DNA of 64,000 nt, from NCBI GenBank assembly GCA_035708865.1, contig DASTFF010000001.1:4333-68332 (forward strand), in the 5' to 3' direction. A program made the translations under genes and the position numbers. Of this stretch, positions 49,463 through 59,991 are shown piece after piece. Each line of letters begins with the position of its first letter. The stretch's first letter is position 1. The notes under the pieces are model-generated. The model ran no database searches, had not been told where the DNA came from, and worked only from the letters and a program-made list of their open reading frames with translations. Source of the DNA: Gemmatimonadota bacterium. Its GTDB lineage: Bacteria > Gemmatimonadota > Gemmatimonadetes > JACCXV01 > JAHWKZ01.

Positions 49463-49846
49463 TCAGCCGCGCTCGATGAGCTCGATCTCGATCCCGTCCG
49501 GATCGCGGATGAAGGCGATCCGGCTCCCCCCCTCGGTGACCCGGTAGGGTCCGCGGGAAAACTCCACGCCGTGCCCCCGCAGCTCTTCACGGGTGGCGTC
49601 GAGGTCCGCGACGCCGAACGCGAAATGGCCGAACTGGTTCCCCAGCTCGTAGTCGCGGCCGTCGTGGTTGAAGGTGAGCTCGAGCGGATGGTTCCCCGTC
49701 TCGTCGACGAGGAAGACGAGCGTGGCGTCGGCCTTCTCTAGCACCGCGCGCCGATCCTCCTTCAGTCCCAGCACCTGCGTGTAGAAACCGACCGCGCGGT
49801 CGAGATCCTTGACGCGGATCATCGTGTGCAGAAGCCGTGTCTTCAT
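49463..49846 (-). CDS. Glyoxalase/VOC-family protein (lactoylglutathione lyase-like)
   Basis: 127 aa with paired beta-alpha-beta-beta-beta modules (MIRVKDLDRAVGFYTQVLGL..HFAFGVADLDA..GIEIELIE). ATG at 49844-49846. Confidence 0.8.
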   Translation of the reverse strand: MKTRLLHTMIRVKDLDRAVGFYTQVLGLKEDRRAVLEKADATLVFLVDETGNHPLELTFNHDGRDYELGNQFGHFAFGVADLDATREELRGHGVEFSRGPYRVTEGGSRIAFIRDPDGIEIELIERG

Positions 49847-49872: not shown

Positions 49873-50748
49873 TCAACGCGGCGCGGGCTCCCGGTGGCGG
49901 CCGCGCCGCTCGCGCCAGGCCCGTACCACGCGCGCCAGGTCGCCACCGGCCTCGACCTCGCGGTTCAGCGCGCGCATGCCGGCCTCGTCGAGCGATCCCT
50001 CCAGCCCCGCCAGGACCCCGCCCACCGCCGGGTGCCGCCCGAGCGTCTCCGAGCGCACCACCGGCGCCGCCTGGTACGGCGGAAAGTAGCGGCGGTCGTC
50101 GGCCAGCACTACGAGGTCCAGCGACTCGATGCGGCCGTCGGTCGAGTTGGCGACCGCGACGTCGATCCGGCGCTCCGCGAGAGCCCGGTACATGAGGCCG
50201 AGGTCGAGCTGGAGGATCCGGCCGAACTCGAATCCGTACGCCTTCGCGAGCCCCGGATACCCGTCCTCGCGCGCCATGAACTCGGGGCCGAAGCCGGCCC
50301 TCATCCGCGCCGCGACCGGGCCCAGGTCGGTGATCGTCGCGAGGTCGAGCGATTCGGCGTCGGCCCGCCGGACGACCAGCGCGAACGTGTTCTGGAAACC
50401 CAGCGGGGGCCCCCACTCCAGCCCCCACCGCTCCGCGTACGCGTCGGCGACCTCCCGGAACGCACGCTCCGGTTCCTGGATCGGAGGCCGCTTTAGGATC
50501 GCGGTCAGGGCCGTCCCCGTGTACTCGGGATAGAGATCGATCCCTCCGTTCACGATCGCGCTGTGACAGACGAACGTCCCCCCCAGGTGAAAGCGCCGCT
50601 CGACCGGGACCCCGCGCGCCTCGAGCTCCTGCGCGAGGATCTCTCCGAGGACGTCCTGCTCGGTGAAGTTTTTCGAGCCGATCACGACCGCGTCCGCCGG
50701 ATGGCAGGCGAGGCCGAGAACGAGCAGGGCGGGGAACGCGCGTCTCAC
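49873..50748 (-). CDS. Quaternary-amine (glycine betaine/choline/ergothioneine-type) ABC transporter substrate-binding protein, OpuAC/OpuBC family
   Basis: Signal peptide (V)RRAFPALLVLGLACHPADA, then OpuAC fold (VIGSKNFTEQDVLGEILAQ..YPEYTG). GTG start overlaps the permease TGA (GTGA). The upstream ~174 codons of the track ORF are rejected. Confidence 0.8.
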   Translation of the reverse strand: MRRAFPALLVLGLACHPADAVVIGSKNFTEQDVLGEILAQELEARGVPVERRFHLGGTFVCHSAIVNGGIDLYPEYTGTALTAILKRPPIQEPERAFREVADAYAERWGLEWGPPLGFQNTFALVVRRADAESLDLATITDLGPVAARMRAGFGPEFMAREDGYPGLAKAYGFEFGRILQLDLGLMYRALAERRIDVAVANSTDGRIESLDLVVLADDRRYFPPYQAAPVVRSETLGRHPAVGGVLAGLEGSLDEAGMRALNREVEAGGDLARVVRAWRERRGRHREPAPR

Positions 50749-51416
50749 GCCGGCCGCCGCTCGACGCGCCGGGTCGCGTGCCCGGCGGGAGTGACGCGGC
50801 GCTCGAGCAGCCCGAGCAGCGCGTCGGCGAAGAGCGCCAGCAGGGCCGCCGGCACCGCGCCCGCCAGGATCACCGTGTCGTTCACCATCGCCAGGCCCTG
50901 GAAGATGTACACGCCGAGCCCCCCCGCCCCGATCGCCGCGGCGATCGTCGCGATACCGACCGAGATCACCGTCGCCACGCGGACGCCGGACAGGATGACC
51001 GGCGCCGCCAGCGGGAGCTCGACCCGGCCCAGGAGCTGTCCGCCGGTCATCCCGAGCCCCAGGCCGGCCTCGCGAACGGCGGGATCCACGCCCCGGATCC
51101 CGGCATGCGTCCCGCGGACGACCGGCAGCAGCGCGTACAGCGTGAGCGCCACGATCGCGGTCCGGGCACCGACCCCGCCGATGAACGGGACCGGGATCAG
51201 GAAGCCGAACAGGGCCAGGCTGGGGATCGTCTGGAGGACGTTGGCGGTTCCCATCACCACCCGCTCCCACCGCTGCCAGCGGGTGGCGGCGATCCCCAGC
51301 GGCACGCCCACCGCGACCGCCACCCCAACCGCCAGCGCGACCATCGTGACGTGCTCGAGGGTCAGTCCCGCGGCCTGGCCGGCGTGGTCGCGCAGGTAGC
51401 GAAGAAGCTCACCCAC
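50745..51416 (-). CDS. Quaternary-amine ABC transporter permease (OpuBB/ProW-like)
   Basis: Binding-protein-dependent permease with EAA-like loop and five TM segments. Confidence 0.85.
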   Translation of the reverse strand: MGELLRYLRDHAGQAAGLTLEHVTMVALAVGVAVAVGVPLGIAATRWQRWERVVMGTANVLQTIPSLALFGFLIPVPFIGGVGARTAIVALTLYALLPVVRGTHAGIRGVDPAVREAGLGLGMTGGQLLGRVELPLAAPVILSGVRVATVISVGIATIAAAIGAGGLGVYIFQGLAMVNDTVILAGAVPAALLALFADALLGLLERRVTPAGHATRRVERRPA

Positions 51417-52170
51417 CCGGACCTCCGCCCAGCGCCTCGACCAGCCCGCGGACTTCGGGGTGGCTCGAGGCCAGGAACTCCGCCGGCGGGGCGATCTCCG
51501 CCAGCCCGTCCTCGGTGAGCAGGCCGACCCGGCCGCCCAGCGCGAGCGCCTCGCGCAGGTCGTGGGTGACGAACAGGGCCGCCTTTTCCAGCCGTTGGAC
51601 GAGCTGCCGGAACTCCTGCTGGAGATCGGCCCTCGTCAGGGGATCCAGGGCGCCGAACGGCTCGTCGAGGAGAAGCAGCGGCGGGTCGGCGGCGAGCGCC
51701 CGGGCCACCCCTACCCGCTGCCGCTGGCCGCCCGAGAGCTCGTGCGGGTAACGCCGGCCGAACTCGCCGGCCGGCAGCCCCACCAGCTCGAGGAGCTCGG
51801 CCGTCCGCTCATCGATCCGGATCCGCTCCCATCCCAGCAGGTCCGGCACCAGACCCACGTTGCCGGCCACCGTGAGGTGCGGGAACAGCCCGACCTCCTG
51901 GATCACGTAACCGGTCCGCCGTCGCAGCGCCACGGGGTCCCAGTCGGTCGTGGGGCGCCCGGCGACGCGGACTACTCCCGCTGCCGGATCGAGGAGCCGG
52001 TTCACCAGCTTGAGGAGGGTCGTCTTGCCGACCCCCGAGCGGCCCACGAGGACAACCGTCTCGTCGGTCCCGACGGCCAGCGTGAGGCCCGCGAACAGGA
52101 CGCGCCCGTCGGGGAGCGAGAACGCCACTTGGTCGAACTCGACCGCCGGGGCCGCGGAGTCCGCCGACAA
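51409..52170 (-). CDS. Quaternary-amine ABC transporter ATP-binding protein (OpuBA/ProV-like)
   Basis: Walker A GRSGVGKTT, signature LSGGQRQRV and Walker B LLLDEP. TTG start at 52168-52170. Confidence 0.9.
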   Translation of the reverse strand: MSADSAAPAVEFDQVAFSLPDGRVLFAGLTLAVGTDETVVLVGRSGVGKTTLLKLVNRLLDPAAGVVRVAGRPTTDWDPVALRRRTGYVIQEVGLFPHLTVAGNVGLVPDLLGWERIRIDERTAELLELVGLPAGEFGRRYPHELSGGQRQRVGVARALAADPPLLLLDEPFGALDPLTRADLQQEFRQLVQRLEKAALFVTHDLREALALGGRVGLLTEDGLAEIAPPAEFLASSHPEVRGLVEALGGGPGG

Positions 52171-52236: not shown

Positions 52237-54588
52237 ATGGCGGGCACCACCCGACCGGTCGCCCTCCCGGCGGCCGACCTTCGAGCCCCCGCCTTCGTCG
52301 AACGTGCCGGCGAGGGCTGGGTGGTGTTCGTCGATGCGACGCCCACCACCGCCGAGGCATTCGCCCACTCCGTCGCGCGCGGGCTCTCGGACCATCCCCG
52401 ATGGCTTCATTGCAGGTATCTCTACGACGAAACCGGGGGCGAGCTGTTCGGGCGGATCACCGAGCAGCCCGAATACTACCTGACACGGGCGGAGACCGAG
52501 ATCCTCGCGCGCCAGTCGGACGCGATCCGCGCGGCCGCGGGACCGGTGCCCCTCGTCGAGCTGGGCGCCGGCATGGCGATCAAGACCCGCCATCTGCTCG
52601 CGGCGTGGGACCGGGCCGGTGGGCCGGTCGAGTACGTCCCCGTGGACATCGACGCGTCCGTACTTACCGCGGCCGCCCAACGGCTGGCGGAGGAGTTTCC
52701 GGGGATCACGATCACCGGCCTAGCGACCTCGTACGAGCGCGGCCTGGACCTGATCGAAGGGCGCTCCCCGCTGTGTCTCGTCTTTCTGGGCTCGACGATC
52801 GGCAACTTCAATCCCGAGGAGACCGACGCCTTCCTGACCCGGCTCCGGGATGCCCTTTCGCCCGGGGACCGGCTGCTGCTGGGCGTCGACCTGGTCAAGC
52901 CGGTCGAGGAACTCGAGGCCGCCTACAACGATGCCGCCGGCGTGAGCCGCGAGTTCACCCGCAACCTCTTCCAGCGGATGAACCGGGACCTGGGCACCGC
53001 GATCCCGCTGGAAGCGATCGACCACGTCGCTTACTGGAACGACCGCCTCGAGCGGATCGAGATCTACGCCCAGGCACGGCGCGCCGTGAACGTAGAGCTG
53101 GCCTCGATCCAGCGGCGTTTTCGCATCGCGGCCGGCGAGATGGTCCTCACCGAGATCAGTCGCAAGTATCGGCTCGACGGCGTCGAGTCGGACTTCGCGC
53201 GGTTCGGTTTCAAGCTGGAACAGTCGTTCACCGACTCCGGCAGCCGGTTCGGTCTGCTCCTCTTCCGGCTCATCGATCCCGGCGCACGGCCGGACCAGGT
53301 GACCCGTCTGGCGGCAACGCTGCAGCGGGTACGCCGCCGTACGCTCGAGCTGATCGACGCGCTCGACGACGAGCGGCTCCGGCGGCAGGAGCTTTCGATC
53401 CTGAGCCCGATCGCGTGGGACCTCGGCCACATCGCCGAGTTCGAGGAGCTGTGGCTCGTGGATACGATCGACGCGCTGCTGACCGGCGGCGATCCATCCC
53501 GACTGTCTCCCGAATACGACGCCATCCGGACACCGCGGAGCGAGCGTGGCCATCTCCCGTTTCCCGCGCGGGGGGAGATCCTGGAGCGGCTCGAGCGCGT
53601 CCGGAAGGAGGCCCTGCGCCGGCTGCGCGCCATCGATCTGGCGGGCCATCCGCTCCTCGAACACGGGTTCGTCTACCACCTCCTGGCACAGCACGAGGCG
53701 CAGCACCAGGAGACGTTCCTGCAGGCGATCGCGCGGATGGCGGACCTGGCCTACGAGCCCGCTTTCCGCGAGCCCACCCCGCGCCCCTCGCTCCCGCCCG
53801 ATACCGACATGGTCCTCGTCGGCGAGGGTCCGTTTCCGGTCGGCGCCGCGCGCATCGCGGAGGCCTACGACAACGAGCGGCCGGTGACCCGGGTCGACGT
53901 GGACGCCTTCTGGATCGACGCCGCCCCGGTCACCAACGGCGTCTACCTCGCGTTCATGGAGGCCGGTGGCTACGAGCGCCGCGACGCGTGGAGCGACGAG
54001 GGATGGGCGTGGCGGGAGAAACACGCCGTCCGGTACCCGCTCGGCTGGCGGCGGGACGAGGGCGGCTGGGTCGACGTCCAGTTCGGCCACGTCGAGCCGC
54101 TCGTCCCCGCGCGGCCGGTCCAGCACGTCTCGTGGTACGAGGCCGACGCCTGCGCGCGCTGGCTGGGCAAGCGGCTCCCGACCGAGATCGAGTGGGAGAA
54201 GGCCGCGGCCTGGGATCCCGAGGTCCGGGTCCCGCGGCGCTACCCGTGGGGAGACGCCCAGCCCGACGCGCGCTGCGCCAACCTGGACGCCCGCACGTTC
54301 GCGCCGGCTCCCGTAGGTGCGTATCCGCGCGGCCGATCCTTCTACGGCTGCCATCAGATGCTGGGCGATGTCTGGGAGTGGACGGCGAGCGAGTTCCTTC
54401 CCTATCCCGGCTTCGAGGCGTTCCCCTACCCGGAGTACTCGGAGGCCCACTTCGGCAAGGGGTACCGGGTGCTGCGCGGCGGCTCGTGGGCGACCGCCGC
54501 GATCGTGGCGCGCAACTCGTTCCGTAACTGGGACCTTCCCGAGCGCCGCCAGATCTTTGCCGGGTTCCGCTGCGCCCGGGACGCGTGA
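52237..54588 (+). CDS. egtDB: Fused ergothioneine biosynthesis protein: EgtD-type L-histidine N-alpha-methyltransferase plus EgtB-type sulfoxide synthase (DinB_2 + FGE-sulfatase domains); Egt1-like architecture
   Basis: N-terminal 330 aa carry EgtD/Methyltransf_33 motifs (EYYLTRAETEIL, LVELGAGMAIKTRHLL, YVPVDIDASVL, FLGSTIGNF). C-terminal ~450 aa carry a DinB_2 region with an HLLAQHEAQHQETF iron-binding motif, then an FGE-sulfatase domain (GDVWEWT, RGGSWAT). Confidence 0.85.
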   Translation: MAGTTRPVALPAADLRAPAFVERAGEGWVVFVDATPTTAEAFAHSVARGLSDHPRWLHCRYLYDETGGELFGRITEQPEYYLTRAETEILARQSDAIRAAAGPVPLVELGAGMAIKTRHLLAAWDRAGGPVEYVPVDIDASVLTAAAQRLAEEFPGITITGLATSYERGLDLIEGRSPLCLVFLGSTIGNFNPEETDAFLTRLRDALSPGDRLLLGVDLVKPVEELEAAYNDAAGVSREFTRNLFQRMNRDLGTAIPLEAIDHVAYWNDRLERIEIYAQARRAVNVELASIQRRFRIAAGEMVLTEISRKYRLDGVESDFARFGFKLEQSFTDSGSRFGLLLFRLIDPGARPDQVTRLAATLQRVRRRTLELIDALDDERLRRQELSILSPIAWDLGHIAEFEELWLVDTIDALLTGGDPSRLSPEYDAIRTPRSERGHLPFPARGEILERLERVRKEALRRLRAIDLAGHPLLEHGFVYHLLAQHEAQHQETFLQAIARMADLAYEPAFREPTPRPSLPPDTDMVLVGEGPFPVGAARIAEAYDNERPVTRVDVDAFWIDAAPVTNGVYLAFMEAGGYERRDAWSDEGWAWREKHAVRYPLGWRRDEGGWVDVQFGHVEPLVPARPVQHVSWYEADACARWLGKRLPTEIEWEKAAAWDPEVRVPRRYPWGDAQPDARCANLDARTFAPAPVGAYPRGRSFYGCHQMLGDVWEWTASEFLPYPGFEAFPYPEYSEAHFGKGYRVLRGGSWATAAIVARNSFRNWDLPERRQIFAGFRCARDA

Positions 54589-54589
54589 G

Positions 54590-55603
54590 GTGAGCGGGCC
54601 GGCCGGGCCGGGCGACCTGGCGCGGCGGCTGGCCCGCCTGCCACTGGAGATCGAGAGCCATTCGGTCGAGCTGGGCTCCGTCCCGCTGGCCGGCTACTAC
54701 GACGGCGCCGAGCGCCCGACCGGGGTGGTCGGGATGGCCGGCCGGGGCCACGTCGGCCGCGGGGAAAACGTCGACTGGACACCGGCCGGGCAGGAGCGGT
54801 TCGCGGCCGTCTGCCGGGAGGTGGTCCAGGACGCCCTCCCGGCGGGGCCGACCACGCTGGGGGCGGTCGGTGCGGCGCTCACCCGCTCGCGTGCCCATCC
54901 CCACCACCGGGCGGCCCTCGAGGCGGCGGCCCTCGATCTCGCGCTCCGGCTGGCCGGTCTCGACCTCTTCCAGCTGAGCGGTCGGCAGCCCCGGGCGGTC
55001 CGCACCTGCCGCTCGATCGGCCGGGAGGAGATCGCCCGGGCGGGACCCCTGACCGCGGTCCTGGCCCTTCTCGCCCGCGAGCCGGACGCCCGGGTCAAGA
55101 TCGACGGCCCCGCCGGTGGATGGCCCGAGGACCTGTGGAGACGGCTGGCCGGGACGGGGCGGGTGGTCGTCGTCGACTTCAAGCGCGAGGGGACGGCCGA
55201 GCAGGTCGCGCTCGCCCACCGCTTCCTGCCCGGCGCCTGGATCGAGGACCCGCCCGCCGACCTCCTCGGACAGGCGGGGGCCGGGTCCTGGCTCTCACGC
55301 CTCGCGCTGGACGGGTACGTGGCGGCGGCTTCCGACCTCGACGCGCCGCCGGCCCCGCCGGCCGCCGTCAACGTGAAGCCCGCCCGGGTCGGGGGTCCCT
55401 GCGAGGCGCTGGCGATCCTCGAGCGGTGCCGGAGCTCGGGTTGGAGCGCCTACTTCGGCGGGATGTTCGAGGTCGACGTGGGCCGGCGGCAAGCGCAGGT
55501 CTTGGCTTCGCTGTTCACGGCCGGGGCGTGGAACGATCTGGCCCCGCTCACCGGGCCGTCCGGCCAGGACGGCGTTCCGGCCGGGGGGCCGGGGTTCGGC
55601 TGA
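54590..55603 (+). CDS. Enolase-superfamily enzyme, MLE subgroup (OSBS/dipeptide-epimerase/NSAR-like)
   Basis: Metal ligands and base in canonical order: VKIDGPAGGW (D), WIEDP (E), LALDGY (D), AAVNVKPARVGG (K). GTG start 2 nt after the egtDB TGA. The first 91 codons of track ORF 54317..55603 overlap egtDB and are rejected. Confidence 0.7.
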   Translation: MSGPAGPGDLARRLARLPLEIESHSVELGSVPLAGYYDGAERPTGVVGMAGRGHVGRGENVDWTPAGQERFAAVCREVVQDALPAGPTTLGAVGAALTRSRAHPHHRAALEAAALDLALRLAGLDLFQLSGRQPRAVRTCRSIGREEIARAGPLTAVLALLAREPDARVKIDGPAGGWPEDLWRRLAGTGRVVVVDFKREGTAEQVALAHRFLPGAWIEDPPADLLGQAGAGSWLSRLALDGYVAAASDLDAPPAPPAAVNVKPARVGGPCEALAILERCRSSGWSAYFGGMFEVDVGRRQAQVLASLFTAGAWNDLAPLTGPSGQDGVPAGGPGFG

Positions 55604-55625: not shown

Positions 55626-57200
55626 TCACCCGCGGCGCGCGAGGATCGCGGCCGCCGCCAGGCGTCCGGAGACGCCGGTGACCGCGCCCGCCGGGTGGGT
55701 GCCCGGGCCGCACAGGTAGAGCCCTTCGATGGGGGTCCCATACCGGCCCCAGCCGGGCACCGGGCGCATGAAGAGGAGCTGGTCGAGCGCCAGCTCCCCG
55801 TGGTGGGGATCCCCGCGGGTCAGTCGGTAGCGCGTCTCGAGGTCGGCCGGCGTCAGGACCCGCCTTTCGAGGATCGCCCCGGGGAGGTTGGGGGCGTGCT
55901 CGGCGAGTAGCTCGACCACGCGGTCCCCCATCGCGCCGGCCAGATCGGGCTCGGGAGCCGGGTGGTCTCCGAGCGGGACGAAACGTGCGTCGATCGACAT
56001 CACGTGCCGACCGGAAGGGGCCACCGAGGGGTCGGCGAGCGACGGGATACGCGCCTCCAGTACGGGGCGCCCCGACATCCGTCCGTGCTTGGCGTCATCG
56101 TACGCCCGCTCCACCGCATCCAGCTCCGGCGCGATCACCAGCGACCCCTGCGGTTCCACGTCGAGGCCTTCGAACCGCGGCGCCTCGGCCAGCGCCAGGT
56201 GGACTCGGACATAGCCGCCGCGGAAGCGGATCTGCCGGACCGCGTGGACGAAGTCGGGATCCAGGTGCCGGGCGCCCGTGAGGTCGAGAAAGGTGCGCGC
56301 GGGGTCCGCTCCCGACAGGACCCATCCGGCCGCGATCACCTCTCCGCCGTCCAGCGACACGCCGACCGCGCGACCCTCCTCGACCTCGATCGCGGCCACC
56401 TCCGCCCCGCACCGGACCTGGACCCCGCGCTCCTTCGCAGCCGCCGTCAGCGCCGCCGCGAGCGCGCCCACTCCCCCCCGCACCACGGTGCGCGGGCCGA
56501 ACGTCCCGGCCGGGCTTCCGACCTGGCGGTGGAGGAGCGCCAGCGACGTGCCCGGCGAGCGCGGGCCCTGGAAGACCCCGCGCACCGACAGCGCTCCCAG
56601 CGCGCCCTTCAGTAGATCGTTTTCGAAGCAGTCGTCGAGGAGATCGTAGGCGGGAAGCGGAAGCACGCGGAGCAGCTCGATCATCCGTGACCGTCCGAGC
56701 GAGCGGATCCGGCGGCCGACGCCGAAATACGGAAGCATCTCGCGGAGCGGCCCCGCCGGCCGGGCGGGGGGCCGCATCGCGACCGCCTCGAGGATACCCG
56801 AGAACGAAGCGATCCGGCCGGCGAACCCCATCCACCGCTCGGCGTCGCGGGGCGAACGTCTGGCGATCGAGGCGCGCGTCGCTTGCGGGTCGCGCCACAG
56901 GACCAGGGGCTCCCCGCCCGCCGCCGGGGCGGCGAGAACGGGATCGGGTCGTAGCTCGGCCAGGCCGTGCCTGGCGAGCCCCAGCCCGTTGACGATCGCC
57001 GGAGGCAGGTGGCCGGCGTCCGGGTGGACGGGGTCGATGCGGAAGCCGGGCAGGATCTCCTCGGAGGCGGCCTGCCCGCCCGGGACCTCGCCCGGCTCGA
57101 GCACCGTCACGCCCAGTCCCGCCTGCGCCAGCTCGAGGGCCGCGACCAGCTCCTCGATGCCGGATCCGATCACGACCACGTCCCGCCGGCCCCCGCTCAC
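55626..57200 (-). CDS. CrtI/phytoene-desaturase-family FAD-dependent oxidoreductase (paralog B)
   Basis: FAD dinucleotide motif VVVIGSGIEELVAALELAQAGLGVTVLE and C-terminal GLYLCGPGTHPAGAVTGVSG. GTG start overlaps the paralog A TGA (GTGA). The upstream ~548 codons of the track ORF are rejected. Confidence 0.75.
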   Translation of the reverse strand: MSGGRRDVVVIGSGIEELVAALELAQAGLGVTVLEPGEVPGGQAASEEILPGFRIDPVHPDAGHLPPAIVNGLGLARHGLAELRPDPVLAAPAAGGEPLVLWRDPQATRASIARRSPRDAERWMGFAGRIASFSGILEAVAMRPPARPAGPLREMLPYFGVGRRIRSLGRSRMIELLRVLPLPAYDLLDDCFENDLLKGALGALSVRGVFQGPRSPGTSLALLHRQVGSPAGTFGPRTVVRGGVGALAAALTAAAKERGVQVRCGAEVAAIEVEEGRAVGVSLDGGEVIAAGWVLSGADPARTFLDLTGARHLDPDFVHAVRQIRFRGGYVRVHLALAEAPRFEGLDVEPQGSLVIAPELDAVERAYDDAKHGRMSGRPVLEARIPSLADPSVAPSGRHVMSIDARFVPLGDHPAPEPDLAGAMGDRVVELLAEHAPNLPGAILERRVLTPADLETRYRLTRGDPHHGELALDQLLFMRPVPGWGRYGTPIEGLYLCGPGTHPAGAVTGVSGRLAAAAILARRG

Positions 57201-58795
57201 CACCTCCCGCCCCCCTGCGCGAGGACGGCGCGCGCCGCCAGGTGGCCGCTCGCGCCCATGACCCCACCACCCGGGTGCGTCCCCGAGCCGCACTGGTAGT
57301 AGCCGCGAATGGGAGTCGTGTGGCCGGCCCACGCCGGAGCCGGCCTCAGGAAGAAGAGCTGGCTCAGCGCCAGCTCGCCCTGGAAGATGTTCCCCTCCGA
57401 GAGCCCCGTTACGGTCTCGATGTCGGCCGGCGTGATCACCTGGCGATGGAGGATGGCGGAGCGGACGTTGGGCGCGTACTCGGCCAGAGTGTCGATCACC
57501 GCGTCGCCGAACGCCTCGCGGCTCCGGTCGTCCCAACCCCCGTTCCGGTGATACGGAGCGTATTGGACGAAGATCGACATGACGTGCTTCCCCGGCGGCG
57601 CCATGCCGGGATCGATGAGCGACGGGATCACGATGTCGAGGAAGGGACGGCGGGAGAACTCGCCGTACTTGGCGTCGTCGTAGGCGCGCTCGAGGTAGTC
57701 CACCCCGGGCGCGATTGCGATCGCCCCCCGCAGGTGGGGCCCGTCGCCGGGAAGCGCCGTGAAGTCGGGCGGCTCGGACAGCGCCAGGTTGACCTTGCCC
57801 GACGAACCGCGGAAGCGGAACCGCCGGACGGCCTCCACGAGCTCGTCGGGGAGCTCCGCCGGCTCGACCAGCTCGAGGAACGTGCGCCGCGGATCGAGAC
57901 CCGAGATCACGGCCCGCGCGCGGATCTCCTCCCCATCGTCCAGGACCACTCCCGCCGCCCGTCCGTTCTCGACGAGGACCTGCCGGACAGGGGCGTCGGT
58001 CCGGATCTCGGCCCCGAAGCTCCGCGCCGCTGAAGCGATGGCATCGCTGACCGCGCCGGTCCCGCCACGGGCGAACCCCCAGGCCCGGAACACCCCGTCG
58101 ATCTCCCCCATGTAGTGATGGAGGAGGACGTAGGCCGTTCCCGGCGAGCGGGGTCCGAGGAAGGTCCCGATGATGCCGCTCGCCGACTTGGCCGCCTTGA
58201 GAGGCTCGCTCTCGAACCATTCCGCCAGGTAATCCGCCGAACTCATCGTCATGAGCTTGACGAGCGCGTGGAGGTCCCGCTCGCCGAGGCCGCGGAAATG
58301 CCGTGCCAGCCGGCCCATCGCCAGGAGATCCCGCGGCCGCCATGAGGCGGGGTCGGGTGGCGAGACGCTCAGCAGCGGCTTGACCGCCATCGCCATCCGC
58401 TGCATGAGCCGGCCGAACTCCAGGTACGCGTCGGCGTCGCGCGGAGAATGGCGGTACAGCTCGCGCCGCGTCGCGTCGGGGTCGGCCCACGTCGCCAGAT
58501 AGTCGCCGTCCGGGAGTGGGTTGAACGTGCTCTCGAGCGGAACGATGTGAAGACCGTGGCCGGGCAAATCGAGGTCGCGGATAATCTCCGGCCGGAGCAG
58601 GCTCACGACGTACGAGAAGACCGAGAAGCGGAAGCCCGGGAACACCTCCTCGGTGACCGCCGCTCCCCCCACCACCGGACGGCGCTCGAGGACCAGGACC
58701 CGGCGGCCGGCACGGGCGAGATACGCCGCGCAGACGAGGCCGTTGTGGCCCCCGCCCACCACCACGTCGTCCCAAACCGCGGCGGGCGACGTCAC
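57197..58795 (-). CDS. CrtI/phytoene-desaturase-family FAD-dependent oxidoreductase (paralog A)
   Basis: VVVGGGHNGLVCAAYLARAGRRVLVLE FAD motif and C-terminal GYYQCGSGTHPGGGVMGASG. GTG start overlaps the gcvT-like TGA (GTGA). Confidence 0.75.
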   Translation of the reverse strand: MTSPAAVWDDVVVGGGHNGLVCAAYLARAGRRVLVLERRPVVGGAAVTEEVFPGFRFSVFSYVVSLLRPEIIRDLDLPGHGLHIVPLESTFNPLPDGDYLATWADPDATRRELYRHSPRDADAYLEFGRLMQRMAMAVKPLLSVSPPDPASWRPRDLLAMGRLARHFRGLGERDLHALVKLMTMSSADYLAEWFESEPLKAAKSASGIIGTFLGPRSPGTAYVLLHHYMGEIDGVFRAWGFARGGTGAVSDAIASAARSFGAEIRTDAPVRQVLVENGRAAGVVLDDGEEIRARAVISGLDPRRTFLELVEPAELPDELVEAVRRFRFRGSSGKVNLALSEPPDFTALPGDGPHLRGAIAIAPGVDYLERAYDDAKYGEFSRRPFLDIVIPSLIDPGMAPPGKHVMSIFVQYAPYHRNGGWDDRSREAFGDAVIDTLAEYAPNVRSAILHRQVITPADIETVTGLSEGNIFQGELALSQLFFLRPAPAWAGHTTPIRGYYQCGSGTHPGGGVMGASGHLAARAVLAQGGGRW

Positions 58796-59991
58796 GCGCG
58801 CTTGCGCCCGGGTTCGAAGAACGGCGTCTCGACGACGGTCGCACGGGCCCTCTTCCGGCGATGCTCGATCGTCATCTCGAGCGCGACGTCCGTTCCAGGC
58901 TCGGCATGCGAGGCCGGGACGTGACTCAAGGCGATGTACTTCTTGAGGAGCGGCGACCAGCAGCCGCTGGTCGCGTACCCCACCTGCTCGCCCCCGTCGT
59001 AGACCGGCGTGCTCGTCCGCCAGGCGGTGGTCGGGAGCTGGGGCGGGAGCCCGACCTCGGAGAACAGCGCCTCCAGCGAGTCCCACTCCACGATCAGGCC
59101 GCGCAAGGCCCACGTCGAGCCGCGCTCGCGCTCCGCCTCGAGCGCCGCCTGGCCGACGAAGCGCGATTTCGCGCGGGCCACCGTCCACCCCAGGCCGAGC
59201 TCGAAGGGGGACGACTTCTGGGTTTCGATGAGGGCCCGCCGCGCCGAGACATAGTCGACGTCGATCAGCAGCAGCCCGGCCTCGATCCGCGCGACGTCCA
59301 TCGCCAGAAGGCCGGTCGGCAGCAGGCCCGCGGGCGCGCCGGCCGCGACGAGGAGGTCCCACAGCGCCTCGGCCCGTCCATTGGCGACCCAGATCTCGTA
59401 CCCCAGGTCACCGGTGTAGCCGGTGCGCGTCACGGTGACCGGGATCCCTCCCAGACACGCCTCCGCGGCGCGGAAGAAGCGCAGCCCCGTCAGGTCGGTG
59501 TCGGCGACACCCGTCAGGATCTCGCGGGCCGCCGGCCCCTGGAGGGACAGGGCGGCCGTCGCGGCGGTCTCGTCCTCGATCGCGACGTTCATCCCGACCG
59601 CGTTCTGGTGGAGCCAGCGCAGGTTGGGGTGGGCGGACGTCATGCGGAACCGGTCCTCCTCGAGCCGCGCCACCGTTCCGTCGTCGATCACCTTCCCCTC
59701 GGGGTCGCACCACGGCGTGTACAGGACCTGCCCCACCGCGCAGCGGGCCACGTCCCGGGTCACGATCCGGTCCAGGAGCGCGGCCGCGTCCGGCCCCCGG
59801 ATCCGGTACTTGAACAGCGGGGTCACGTCGATCAGCGCGGCGGTGCCACGGATGGCCGCATACTCCAGATCGTGGACCAGGTCGTATGAGGACGCCACCA
59901 CGTAGCCGGCCCAGCGGCGCCAGGCATGGCCGCGCACGAGCGCCGCAGTGCGGGAATGGAAGGGAGTGGTCCTCAGCCCGTGGATGGTCAT
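58792..59991 (-). CDS. GcvT-family aminomethyltransferase (folate-binding; glycine-cleavage T-protein-like)
   Basis: ALIDVTPLFKYRIRGPDA (compare DVSHMGK..GPDA), RTGYTGDLGYEIW and a C-terminal barrel. No gcvH or gcvP nearby. Confidence 0.8.
   Translation of the reverse strand: MTIHGLRTTPFHSRTAALVRGHAWRRWAGYVVASSYDLVHDLEYAAIRGTAALIDVTPLFKYRIRGPDAAALLDRIVTRDVARCAVGQVLYTPWCDPEGKVIDDGTVARLEEDRFRMTSAHPNLRWLHQNAVGMNVAIEDETAATAALSLQGPAAREILTGVADTDLTGLRFFRAAEACLGGIPVTVTRTGYTGDLGYEIWVANGRAEALWDLLVAAGAPAGLLPTGLLAMDVARIEAGLLLIDVDYVSARRALIETQKSSPFELGLGWTVARAKSRFVGQAALEAERERGSTWALRGLIVEWDSLEALFSEVGLPPQLPTTAWRTSTPVYDGGEQVGYATSGCWSPLLKKYIALSHVPASHAEPGTDVALEMTIEHRRKRARATVVETPFFEPGRKRA

Follow-up and report, generated by a model that had tools for sequence, protein, structure and literature searches.

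The window analysed here, 64,000 nucleotides (nt) of contig DASTFF010000001.1 from a Gemmatimonadota bacterium, carries a gene of the DUF8230 family, a Pfam family without an assigned function, directly downstream of egtDB, a fused gene of ergothioneine biosynthesis (Table 1). Ergothioneine is a widely studied antioxidant, and the known aerobic bacterial route to it needs EgtE, a lyase that depends on pyridoxal 5'-phosphate (PLP), plus the amidohydrolase EgtC where the sulfoxide synthase EgtB is of type I. Here the DUF8230 product is considered as a candidate for the last enzyme of ergothioneine synthesis.

The open reading frame (ORF) of 337 codons runs from a GTG start to a TGA stop (55601-55603), and the original prediction of a plus-strand ORF directly after egtDB was confirmed, the start lying one base past the egtDB stop codon (TGA, 54586-54588). 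The codon-position GC contents (approximately 0.85 for GC1, 0.58 for GC2 and 0.92 for GC3, in a window of 71% GC) fit plus-strand coding in this frame, and a search for promoter-like or terminator-like sites between both genes revealed none. The upstream gene is a true EgtD-EgtB fusion, as had been called earlier. Its product matched the Pfam domains Methyltransf_33, DinB_2 and FGE-sulfatase and scored above the curated NCBIfam cut-offs for TIGR03438 (309 bits versus 290.9) and TIGR03440 (384 versus 360), giving a histidine N-alpha-methyltransferase, EgtD, in the N-terminal part and a type-I sulfoxide synthase, EgtB, in the C-terminal part. SenA (selenoneine) in place of EgtB was rejected, the SenA model scoring 343 bits against a cut-off of 420 and Arg87 and Asp416, which SenA replaces, both being present.

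Table 1. Coordinates of the DUF8230 gene, its predicted active-site codons and its neighbours in the window.
Feature	Position	Strand	Description
DUF8230 gene	54590-55603	+	337 aa; predicted divergent enolase-superfamily enzyme, subtype A (GGMFE)
egtDB fusion gene	52237-54588	+	783 aa; EgtD, aa ~1-350; EgtB, aa ~351-783
Junction TGA-G-GTG	54586-54592	+	egtDB stop, 1-nt spacer, DUF8230 start; read from sequence
Codons K170-I-D172	55097-55105	+	End of barrel strand 2; K170 equivalent to K161 of Amycolatopsis N-succinylamino-acid racemase (NSAR); D172 replaces catalytic K163
Codons D196-F-K198	55175-55183	+	D196, predicted first metal ligand; K198 where relatives have Asn
Codons E219-D220	55244-55249	+	E219, predicted second metal ligand
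Codon D241	55310-55312	+	Predicted third metal ligand
Codons N261-V-K263-P-A-R266-V-G-G	55370-55396	+	K263, predicted strand-6 general base; R266, second-shell tuning Arg
OpuA-type ATP-binding cassette (ABC) importer	49873-52170	-	Divergent from egtDB; Pfam OpuAC/BPD_transp_1/ABC_tran
Importer, substrate-binding protein	49873-50748	-	
Importer, permease	50745-51416	-	
Importer, ATPase	51409-52170	-	
Glyoxalase-I-like vicinal oxygen chelate (VOC) protein	49463-49846	-	Adjoins importer
Three genes converging on DUF8230	55626-59991	-	Two CrtO/CrtI-like flavin adenine dinucleotide (FAD) oxidoreductases and a GcvT-like aminomethyltransferase; successive 4-nt overlaps

Fold and active site of the DUF8230 protein

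In precomputed annotations, an identical protein and all listed homologues hit both models of the family, DUF8230_N and DUF8230_C (PF26684 and PF26685). Standard enolase-superfamily models matched the protein weakly (MR_MLE_C, E=0.047), no curated NCBIfam model names the family, and source annotations label its homologues 'hypothetical', 'Ala-Glu epimerase-like' or 'OSBS' (o-succinylbenzoate synthase). A total of 192 clusters among 1.84 billion representatives scored E<=1e-30 or better for DUF8230; no homologue was found in a plasmid collection, no cultured host carrying the gene was found, and a full-text literature search retrieved no paper joining ergothioneine with the enolase superfamily, DUF8230 or MR/MLE/OSBS terms. 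Rosetta-stone fusions of DUF8230 to EgtB were also sought and dismissed, the long matches having no EgtB domain and one carrying an ABC-3 fragment.

The AlphaFold (AF2) model of the protein, built on 69 homologues with a predicted local distance difference test score (pLDDT) of 95.3 and a predicted template modelling score (pTM) of 0.93, shows the architecture of the enolase superfamily, with an N-terminal alpha+beta capping domain and a C-terminal (beta/alpha)7-beta barrel. Foldseek matched this model to N-acylamino-acid racemases, dipeptide epimerases and muconate lactonizing enzymes (MLEs) with template modelling (TM) scores of 0.70-0.78, probability 1.00 and identities of 21-25%, and the family profile run against the PDB sequences ranked NSAR/OSBS enzymes first (1wue, 2e-21; 1sja, 6.5e-19), followed by dipeptide epimerases (1jpd, 4e-11). 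As modelled, the DUF8230 protein is of the enolase-superfamily fold, with NSAR/OSBS enzymes as its nearest solved relatives. With those from Amycolatopsis (1sja), E. faecalis (1wue) and T. thermophilus (2zc8) it shares the capping domain and barrel, the D/E/D metal ligands, one each at the end of strands 3, 4 and 5, an N-x-K-x-x-R-x-G-G motif containing both the strand-6 Lys and the second-shell R266, and a GGM(F/I)E..GR segment. It differs from them in its low identity (21-25%), in the replacement of K163 by Asp and of Asn191 by Lys198, in scores below the MR_MLE and menC thresholds, and in its context of egt genes rather than men or N-succinyl-amino-acid genes. No similarity to EgtE (class-V aminotransferase fold, PLP Lys, TIGR04343) was detected with Pfam, NCBIfam or Foldseek.

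Active-site residues were assigned by combining alignments to 1sja, 2zc8 and 1wue with the strand positions of the AF2 model. D196, E219 and D241 aligned to D189, E214 and D239 of 1sja, giving the set of metal ligands that characterizes the superfamily. The motifs K170-x-D172, D196-x-K198 and N-x-K263-x-x-R266, together with E219 and D241, were invariant in 69 database homologues, in 117 Thermoleophilia-type proteins and in 56 genes translated from genome loci, among which the invariance reached down to 29% identity, archaea included. Members of the MLE subgroup carry catalytic lysines on strands 2 and 6 (bioRxiv 10.1101/2022.03.03.481873). In DUF8230 the strand-6 Lys is present as the invariant K263, and it is followed three residues later by the second-shell Arg of the NSAR/OSBS subfamily, the invariant R266, but the second Lys of the strand-2 K-x-K motif is missing. 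The original assignment to the MLE subgroup was therefore borne out for the D/E/D ligands and the N-x-K-x-x-R-x-GG motif and failed for the full catalytic set; because its strand-2 motif is K170-x-D172 and not K-x-K, DUF8230 appears to be a divergent relative of the subgroup and not a canonical member. In NSAR, the proton of the L-substrate is exchanged by K263, whose acid/base reactivity requires R266, and that of the D-substrate by K163, which in OSBS serves as the general base (bioRxiv 10.1101/2022.03.03.481873; PMC12006748). Judged by its residues, the DUF8230 family has retained the L-specific base with its tuning Arg and lost the D-specific/OSBS base. Such a pattern is consistent with a reaction that uses a single base on an L-configured substrate, and it speaks against OSBS as well as against a classical racemase with two bases.

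Linkage to egt genes and exclusivity with egtA and egtC

A scan with the family alignment, taking one genome per species, gave 53 DUF8230 loci, its patterns favouring the subtype of the window, and egt neighbours were found by tblastn with the EgtD and EgtB domains of the window. The counts rest on these searches and on Pfam-annotated contigs; a crude GC3-based gene caller, which often returns antisense ORFs, served for neighbour clustering only (54 loci, the 53 genome loci plus the contig of the window itself). Genes of the egt pathway adjoined DUF8230 in 46 of the 53 scanned loci. Three subtypes were split by pocket residues. In subtype A (GGMFE, P43), from Gemmatimonadota, Binatia, Myxococcota/'delta', Thermodesulfobacteriota and Limnocylindria, egtD-egtB lay immediately upstream on the same strand in 40 of 42 species-level genome loci, while in subtype B (GGQ[S/H]E, R43), from Thermoleophilia/Actinomycetes, separate egtB-egtD genes were adjacent and convergent in all six loci. 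Subtype C (GGQ[F/Y/W/T]E, Y63), from Thermoleophilia, haloarchaea and Acidobacteria, was linked to egt genes in none of ten loci, with no egt gene within 7-10 kb, although its catalytic residues are identical to those of the egt-linked subtypes; its neighbourhoods had no coherent theme and differed from locus to locus (haloarchaea L051, L053 and L054; Thermoleophilia L141-L145). Linkage to egtDB, which was to be expected of a pathway partner, is thus strong in subtypes A and B, where it is kept across all the lineages named and places DUF8230 beside egtB/egtD in at least six phyla, but does not extend to the large Thermoleophilia and haloarchaeal subtype.

The junctions point in the same direction. 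Among 45 same-strand egtB/DUF8230 junctions of other loci, 30 had a candidate start overlapping the stop codon of egtB, as a rule by 4 nt, and a further nine had one within 0-20 nt of it. Identities of EgtB and DUF8230 to the window copies co-varied (Spearman 0.90, n=43). On the Pfam-annotated contigs of distant members a bare pair of egtDB and DUF8230 stood amid unrelated neighbours, with no PLP enzyme, egtA or egtC in the annotated contexts within 10 kb on either side of DUF8230, and neighbour clustering revealed no other conserved partner gene beyond the egt genes and an importer. Taken together, it is very probable that DUF8230 is a functional partner of egtDB.

Three loci are worth recording separately. 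In L062 (6829-7748), the sole same-strand locus in which DUF8230 does not adjoin egtDB, a gap of approximately 0.9 kb holds two small ORFs, of 84 and 194 aa, neither of which matches an NCBIfam model at E<=1e-8. The Binatia locus L032 (3215-10577) has DUF8230 without egtDB; after it come a PNPOx-like protein, an ABC importer of the OpuA type (an ATPase and a permease fused to a binding protein) and a large molybdopterin enzyme. The last was considered as a possible ergothioneine synthase of the MES type, an identity that would have spoken against a sulfoxide as substrate, but it was rejected, being FdhF-like, with no cysteine desulfurase match in Pfam or among solved structures and no EgtD nearby. 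In the Thermoleophilia locus L050 (1787-4766), a subtype C gene starts 2 nt past the gene of a 617-aa AMP-binding (acyl-adenylate-forming) enzyme, with no egt gene nearby.

A second sample, of 80 metagenome loci, was collected with an alignment of DUF8230-linked EgtB domains, and verified seeds drawn from these loci for EgtA (TIGR03444, 375 bits), EgtC (TIGR03442, 262 bits) and an EgtE-like lyase were run on all loci and on the window. egtA and/or egtC occurred in 62 of the 80 EgtB-selected loci, and DUF8230 in none of these 62; the two loci that did carry DUF8230 had the fused D-to-B order and neither egtA nor egtC, and two further fused loci end right past egtB and cannot be scored. Conversely, the seed search found no egtA, no adjacent egtC and no egtE in the 53 DUF8230-selected loci. 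The 64-kb window likewise gave no tblastn match to any of the three seeds, in line with the absence of EgtE from the locus that had been noted before. Over all EgtB-containing loci, both types of gene were present in none, DUF8230 alone in 48, egtA and/or egtC alone in 62 and neither in 16 (mostly truncated contigs), counts that pool two differently drawn samples of related sequences and are to be read as a clear pattern and not as a probability; Fisher p-values calculated from them do not amount to true probabilities. The sole EgtC-like tblastn match in any DUF8230 locus (L026:18260-19090, minus strand, 103 bits), 8 kb off and on the opposite strand, may belong to a different amidotransferase-type protein.

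The thiol pocket of the linked EgtB bears on the likely substrate. The best solved match of the window EgtB was M. thermoresistibile EgtB (MthEgtB; 4x8b, 347 bits), a gamma-glutamylcysteine-dependent enzyme, compared with 166 bits for the Cys-type Chloracidobacterium EgtB. All five residues listed as binding substrate in MthEgtB (Arg87, Arg90, Trp415, Asp416 and Arg420) are kept in the window copy, which agrees, as regards Arg87, Arg90, Asp416 and Arg420, with the type-I class given by TIGR03440; in the cysteine-dependent Chloracidobacterium enzyme Arg87 and Arg90 are likewise kept, whereas positions 415, 416 and 420 are Phe, Phe and Ala. W415/D416/R420 were present in all 46 DUF8230-linked EgtBs examined, as also in 45 egtC-linked EgtBs. 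With such a gamma-glutamylcysteine-type pocket, the DUF8230-linked EgtB probably makes an N-gamma-glutamyl sulfoxide, which is hence the likely substrate of the DUF8230 enzyme; the latter would consequently replace EgtC as well as EgtE.

Importer and other neighbouring genes

Upstream of egtDB and divergent from it lies an OpuA-type importer, whose binding protein scored 150 bits against the ergothioneine-specific EgtUC and 160-190 bits against the choline/betaine binders OpuBC, ProX and OpuCC, thus resembling both groups. In the neighbour clustering of 54 loci, 25 had the ATPase family (cluster C1) and 19 the family of the permease and binding protein (C3), in several arrangements. The importer is an associated module that could take up ergothioneine or hercynine. 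The VOC protein next to the importer matched TIGR00068 with 96 bits, under the cut-off of 120, and is kept beside the importer in 12 Gemmatimonadota loci; the position of a thiol-dependent VOC enzyme next to a thiol-biosynthesis cluster may be no coincidence. On the other side, the GcvT-like protein encoded among the three genes that converge on DUF8230 matched best, with 288 bits, to trimethylamine-N-oxide demethylase in the C-terminal half of that enzyme, and these genes may form a methylated-amine demethylation module beside the betaine cluster.

Proposed role in ergothioneine synthesis

The product of the DUF8230 gene is probably a new enzyme for the final step of ergothioneine synthesis, one that works without vitamin B6. 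In terms of chemistry, its residues and context suggest a Mg-dependent beta-lyase that would release ergothioneine from the sulfoxide product of EgtB, probably in the gamma-glutamyl form, and replace EgtC and EgtE, an assignment that we regard as evenly balanced between right and wrong. The substrate, the reaction (including the beta-elimination already put forward in the original prediction) and the products are inferred. In the proposed mechanism, a divalent metal on D196, E219 and D241 would bind the product of EgtB, S-(hercyn-2-yl)-cysteine S-oxide, through the free alpha-carboxylate of its cysteinyl moiety; this product is most likely still N-gamma-glutamylated and not just the hercynylcysteine sulfoxide first envisaged. 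K263, tuned by R266, would take the L-alpha-proton, K170 would help to stabilise the enediolate, and beta-elimination would then follow, the enediolate expelling the imidazol-2-yl sulfenate to give ergothioneine sulfenic acid, which cellular thiols would reduce to ergothioneine; the co-product, dehydroalanine or gamma-glutamyl-dehydroalanine, would decay to pyruvate. With a good leaving group and no need for reprotonation, the opposite-face base of the racemases, in whose place D172 stands, would be dispensable.

Acceptance of an N-acylated substrate would set this enzyme apart from the known route. For a PLP lyase, the N-gamma-glutamyl sulfoxide becomes usable only once EgtC has released the amine. 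Unlike EgtE, an enzyme of the enolase type would need no free amine, and one step could therefore replace the EgtC and EgtE reactions. All of the nearest solved relatives (NSAR/OSBS and dipeptide epimerases) take amino acids that are N-acylated and have a free alpha-carboxylate; the N-gamma-glutamyl sulfoxide is likewise an N-acylated amino acid, carrying a distal carboxylate, and so falls into the substrate class of the N-succinylamino-acid racemases. DUF8230 would thus share with EgtE/Egt2 plus EgtC the overall conversion of the EgtB sulfoxide product to ergothioneine, and it occupies the place of egtC in the cluster, but the folds are unrelated (class-V aminotransferase with PLP versus enolase barrel with a divalent metal) and prior removal of the gamma-glutamyl group is predicted to be unnecessary. 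The chemistry has precedents in enolase-superfamily lyases such as OSBS, 3-methylaspartate ammonia-lyase and the acid-sugar and cis-3-hydroxy-L-proline dehydratases, in which alpha-proton abstraction from a metal-bound carboxylate is followed by beta-elimination, as proposed for DUF8230; their leaving groups, however, are OH or NH3, and expulsion of a sulfenate or C-S cleavage is found in no known member.

Several observations weigh against a dedicated last step of this kind. To our knowledge, there is no C-S lyase in the enolase superfamily, and the invariant K198 or D172 could serve as a second base and so permit epimerisation. EgtE-like genes were clustered in just 4 of the 80 EgtB-selected loci, being rare even in classical ones, so that little can be concluded about the remainder of the genome from the lack of EgtE beside DUF8230. 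Type-I loci of the order egtB-egtD-egtA-like, at least 11 in number, showed the same apparent EgtC gap, having neither egtC nor DUF8230 (L070, L072-L075, L080, L092, L093, L096, L101 and L115), so that a missing egtC need not be made good by a neighbouring gene. The Thermoleophilia loci had no egtA nearby, although gamma-glutamylcysteine would be needed. Finally, since subtype C has the same residues without egt linkage, the chemistry of the family, as far as residues and gene context can tell, is not specific to ergothioneine.

Alternative functions were weighed against the same evidence. An ordinary OSBS (MenC) placed here by chance, which had been named as the alternative from the outset, might be suggested by the annotation of some homologues as 'O-succinylbenzoate synthase' and by a weak C-terminal match to TIGR01928. 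This match, however, scored 32.9 bits where the cut-off is 200.65, spanning residues 259-310 only (approximately the last 50), the strand-2 general-base Lys of MenC (K163 in Amycolatopsis, K133 in E. coli) aligned to D172, an invariant Asp in all sequences examined, no men-type family occurred in nine Pfam-annotated DUF8230 contexts or adjoining the window gene, and the conserved neighbours are egt genes. The orthology and linkage checks thus both favoured a partner enzyme over a stray menC, whose probability we consider negligible. Hardly more credible is a catalytically dead enolase-fold protein that would serve EgtDB as a subunit with a structural or regulatory function: a canonical catalytic Lys has indeed been lost, but over the whole range from 29% to 100% identity, in bacteria and archaea, there is no variation in the three metal ligands, K263, R266, K170 and further pocket residues, which indicates selection on an active site.

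Improbable as well, though less so than these two, is a racemase or epimerase whose substrate would be an amino-acid betaine, either hercynine or ergothioneine, or a dipeptide of the gamma-glutamyl type, and whose link to egtDB and the importer would reflect a shared substrate and not a biosynthetic step. Racemisation or epimerisation is the commonest activity among the nearest relatives, and the nearest structures are racemases and epimerases. Of the 54 clustered loci, 25 had a linked OpuA/EgtU-type importer, a Binatia locus combined DUF8230 and importer without egtDB, and K198 and D172 could in principle act as second base. A betaine is the substrate of 4-hydroxyproline-betaine 2-epimerase, and HpbD (4R-hydroxyproline betaine 2-epimerase), of the MLE subgroup, is genomically linked to betaine ABC transporters; HpbD nevertheless has both catalytic lysines, of which DUF8230 has no strand-2 counterpart, and was absent among the listed solved-structure matches of the DUF8230 protein. 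Against an epimerase stand the Asp that replaces the D-specific base (K163 of NSAR) in every DUF8230 member and the strict exclusivity with egtA/egtC, which it leaves unexplained; moreover, we know of no D-ergothioneine or D-hercynine biology. Slightly better placed, though still unlikely, is an accessory role, be it salvage or repair of oxidised or conjugated ergothioneine, processing of an imported betaine, or a general N-acyl-cysteine S-conjugate activity housed in the egt operon in some lineages. It would accommodate the frequent importer linkage and the ten egt-unlinked subtype C loci, including those of haloarchaea, whose main thiol is reportedly gamma-glutamylcysteine (the title of Newton & Javor 1985 says as much), which hints at a related N-acyl-cysteine substrate for subtype C. 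On the other hand, the subtype A gene nearly always forms part of one transcription unit with egtDB, its start codon overlapping the stop of the latter, and co-varies with EgtB, a pattern typical of consecutive pathway enzymes, and no other conserved partner gene was found.

The release of ergothioneine by a DUF8230 enzyme thus remains the preferred reading, and the combination of an egtD-egtB fusion with DUF8230, in the inferred role of dedicated third enzyme, can be described as a distinct type of ergothioneine gene cluster. A broader version is offered with less confidence, as something that we would expect to fail somewhat more readily than to hold: DUF8230 may be the first enolase-superfamily C-S beta-lyase, PLP-independent and metal-dependent, which takes the N-gamma-glutamyl sulfoxide straight to ergothioneine in a two-gene aerobic pathway present in at least six phyla, with subtype C representing wider N-acyl-cysteine S-conjugate lyases. 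If true, the textbook ergothioneine pathway would gain a new last step, the enolase superfamily would be extended to C-S bond cleavage, a DUF family would gain a function, and a compact two-gene cassette would become available for production strains. It would also explain how the pathway could be completed without a clustered egtC in many soil lineages (Gemmatimonadota, Binatia, Myxococcota and Thermoleophilia).

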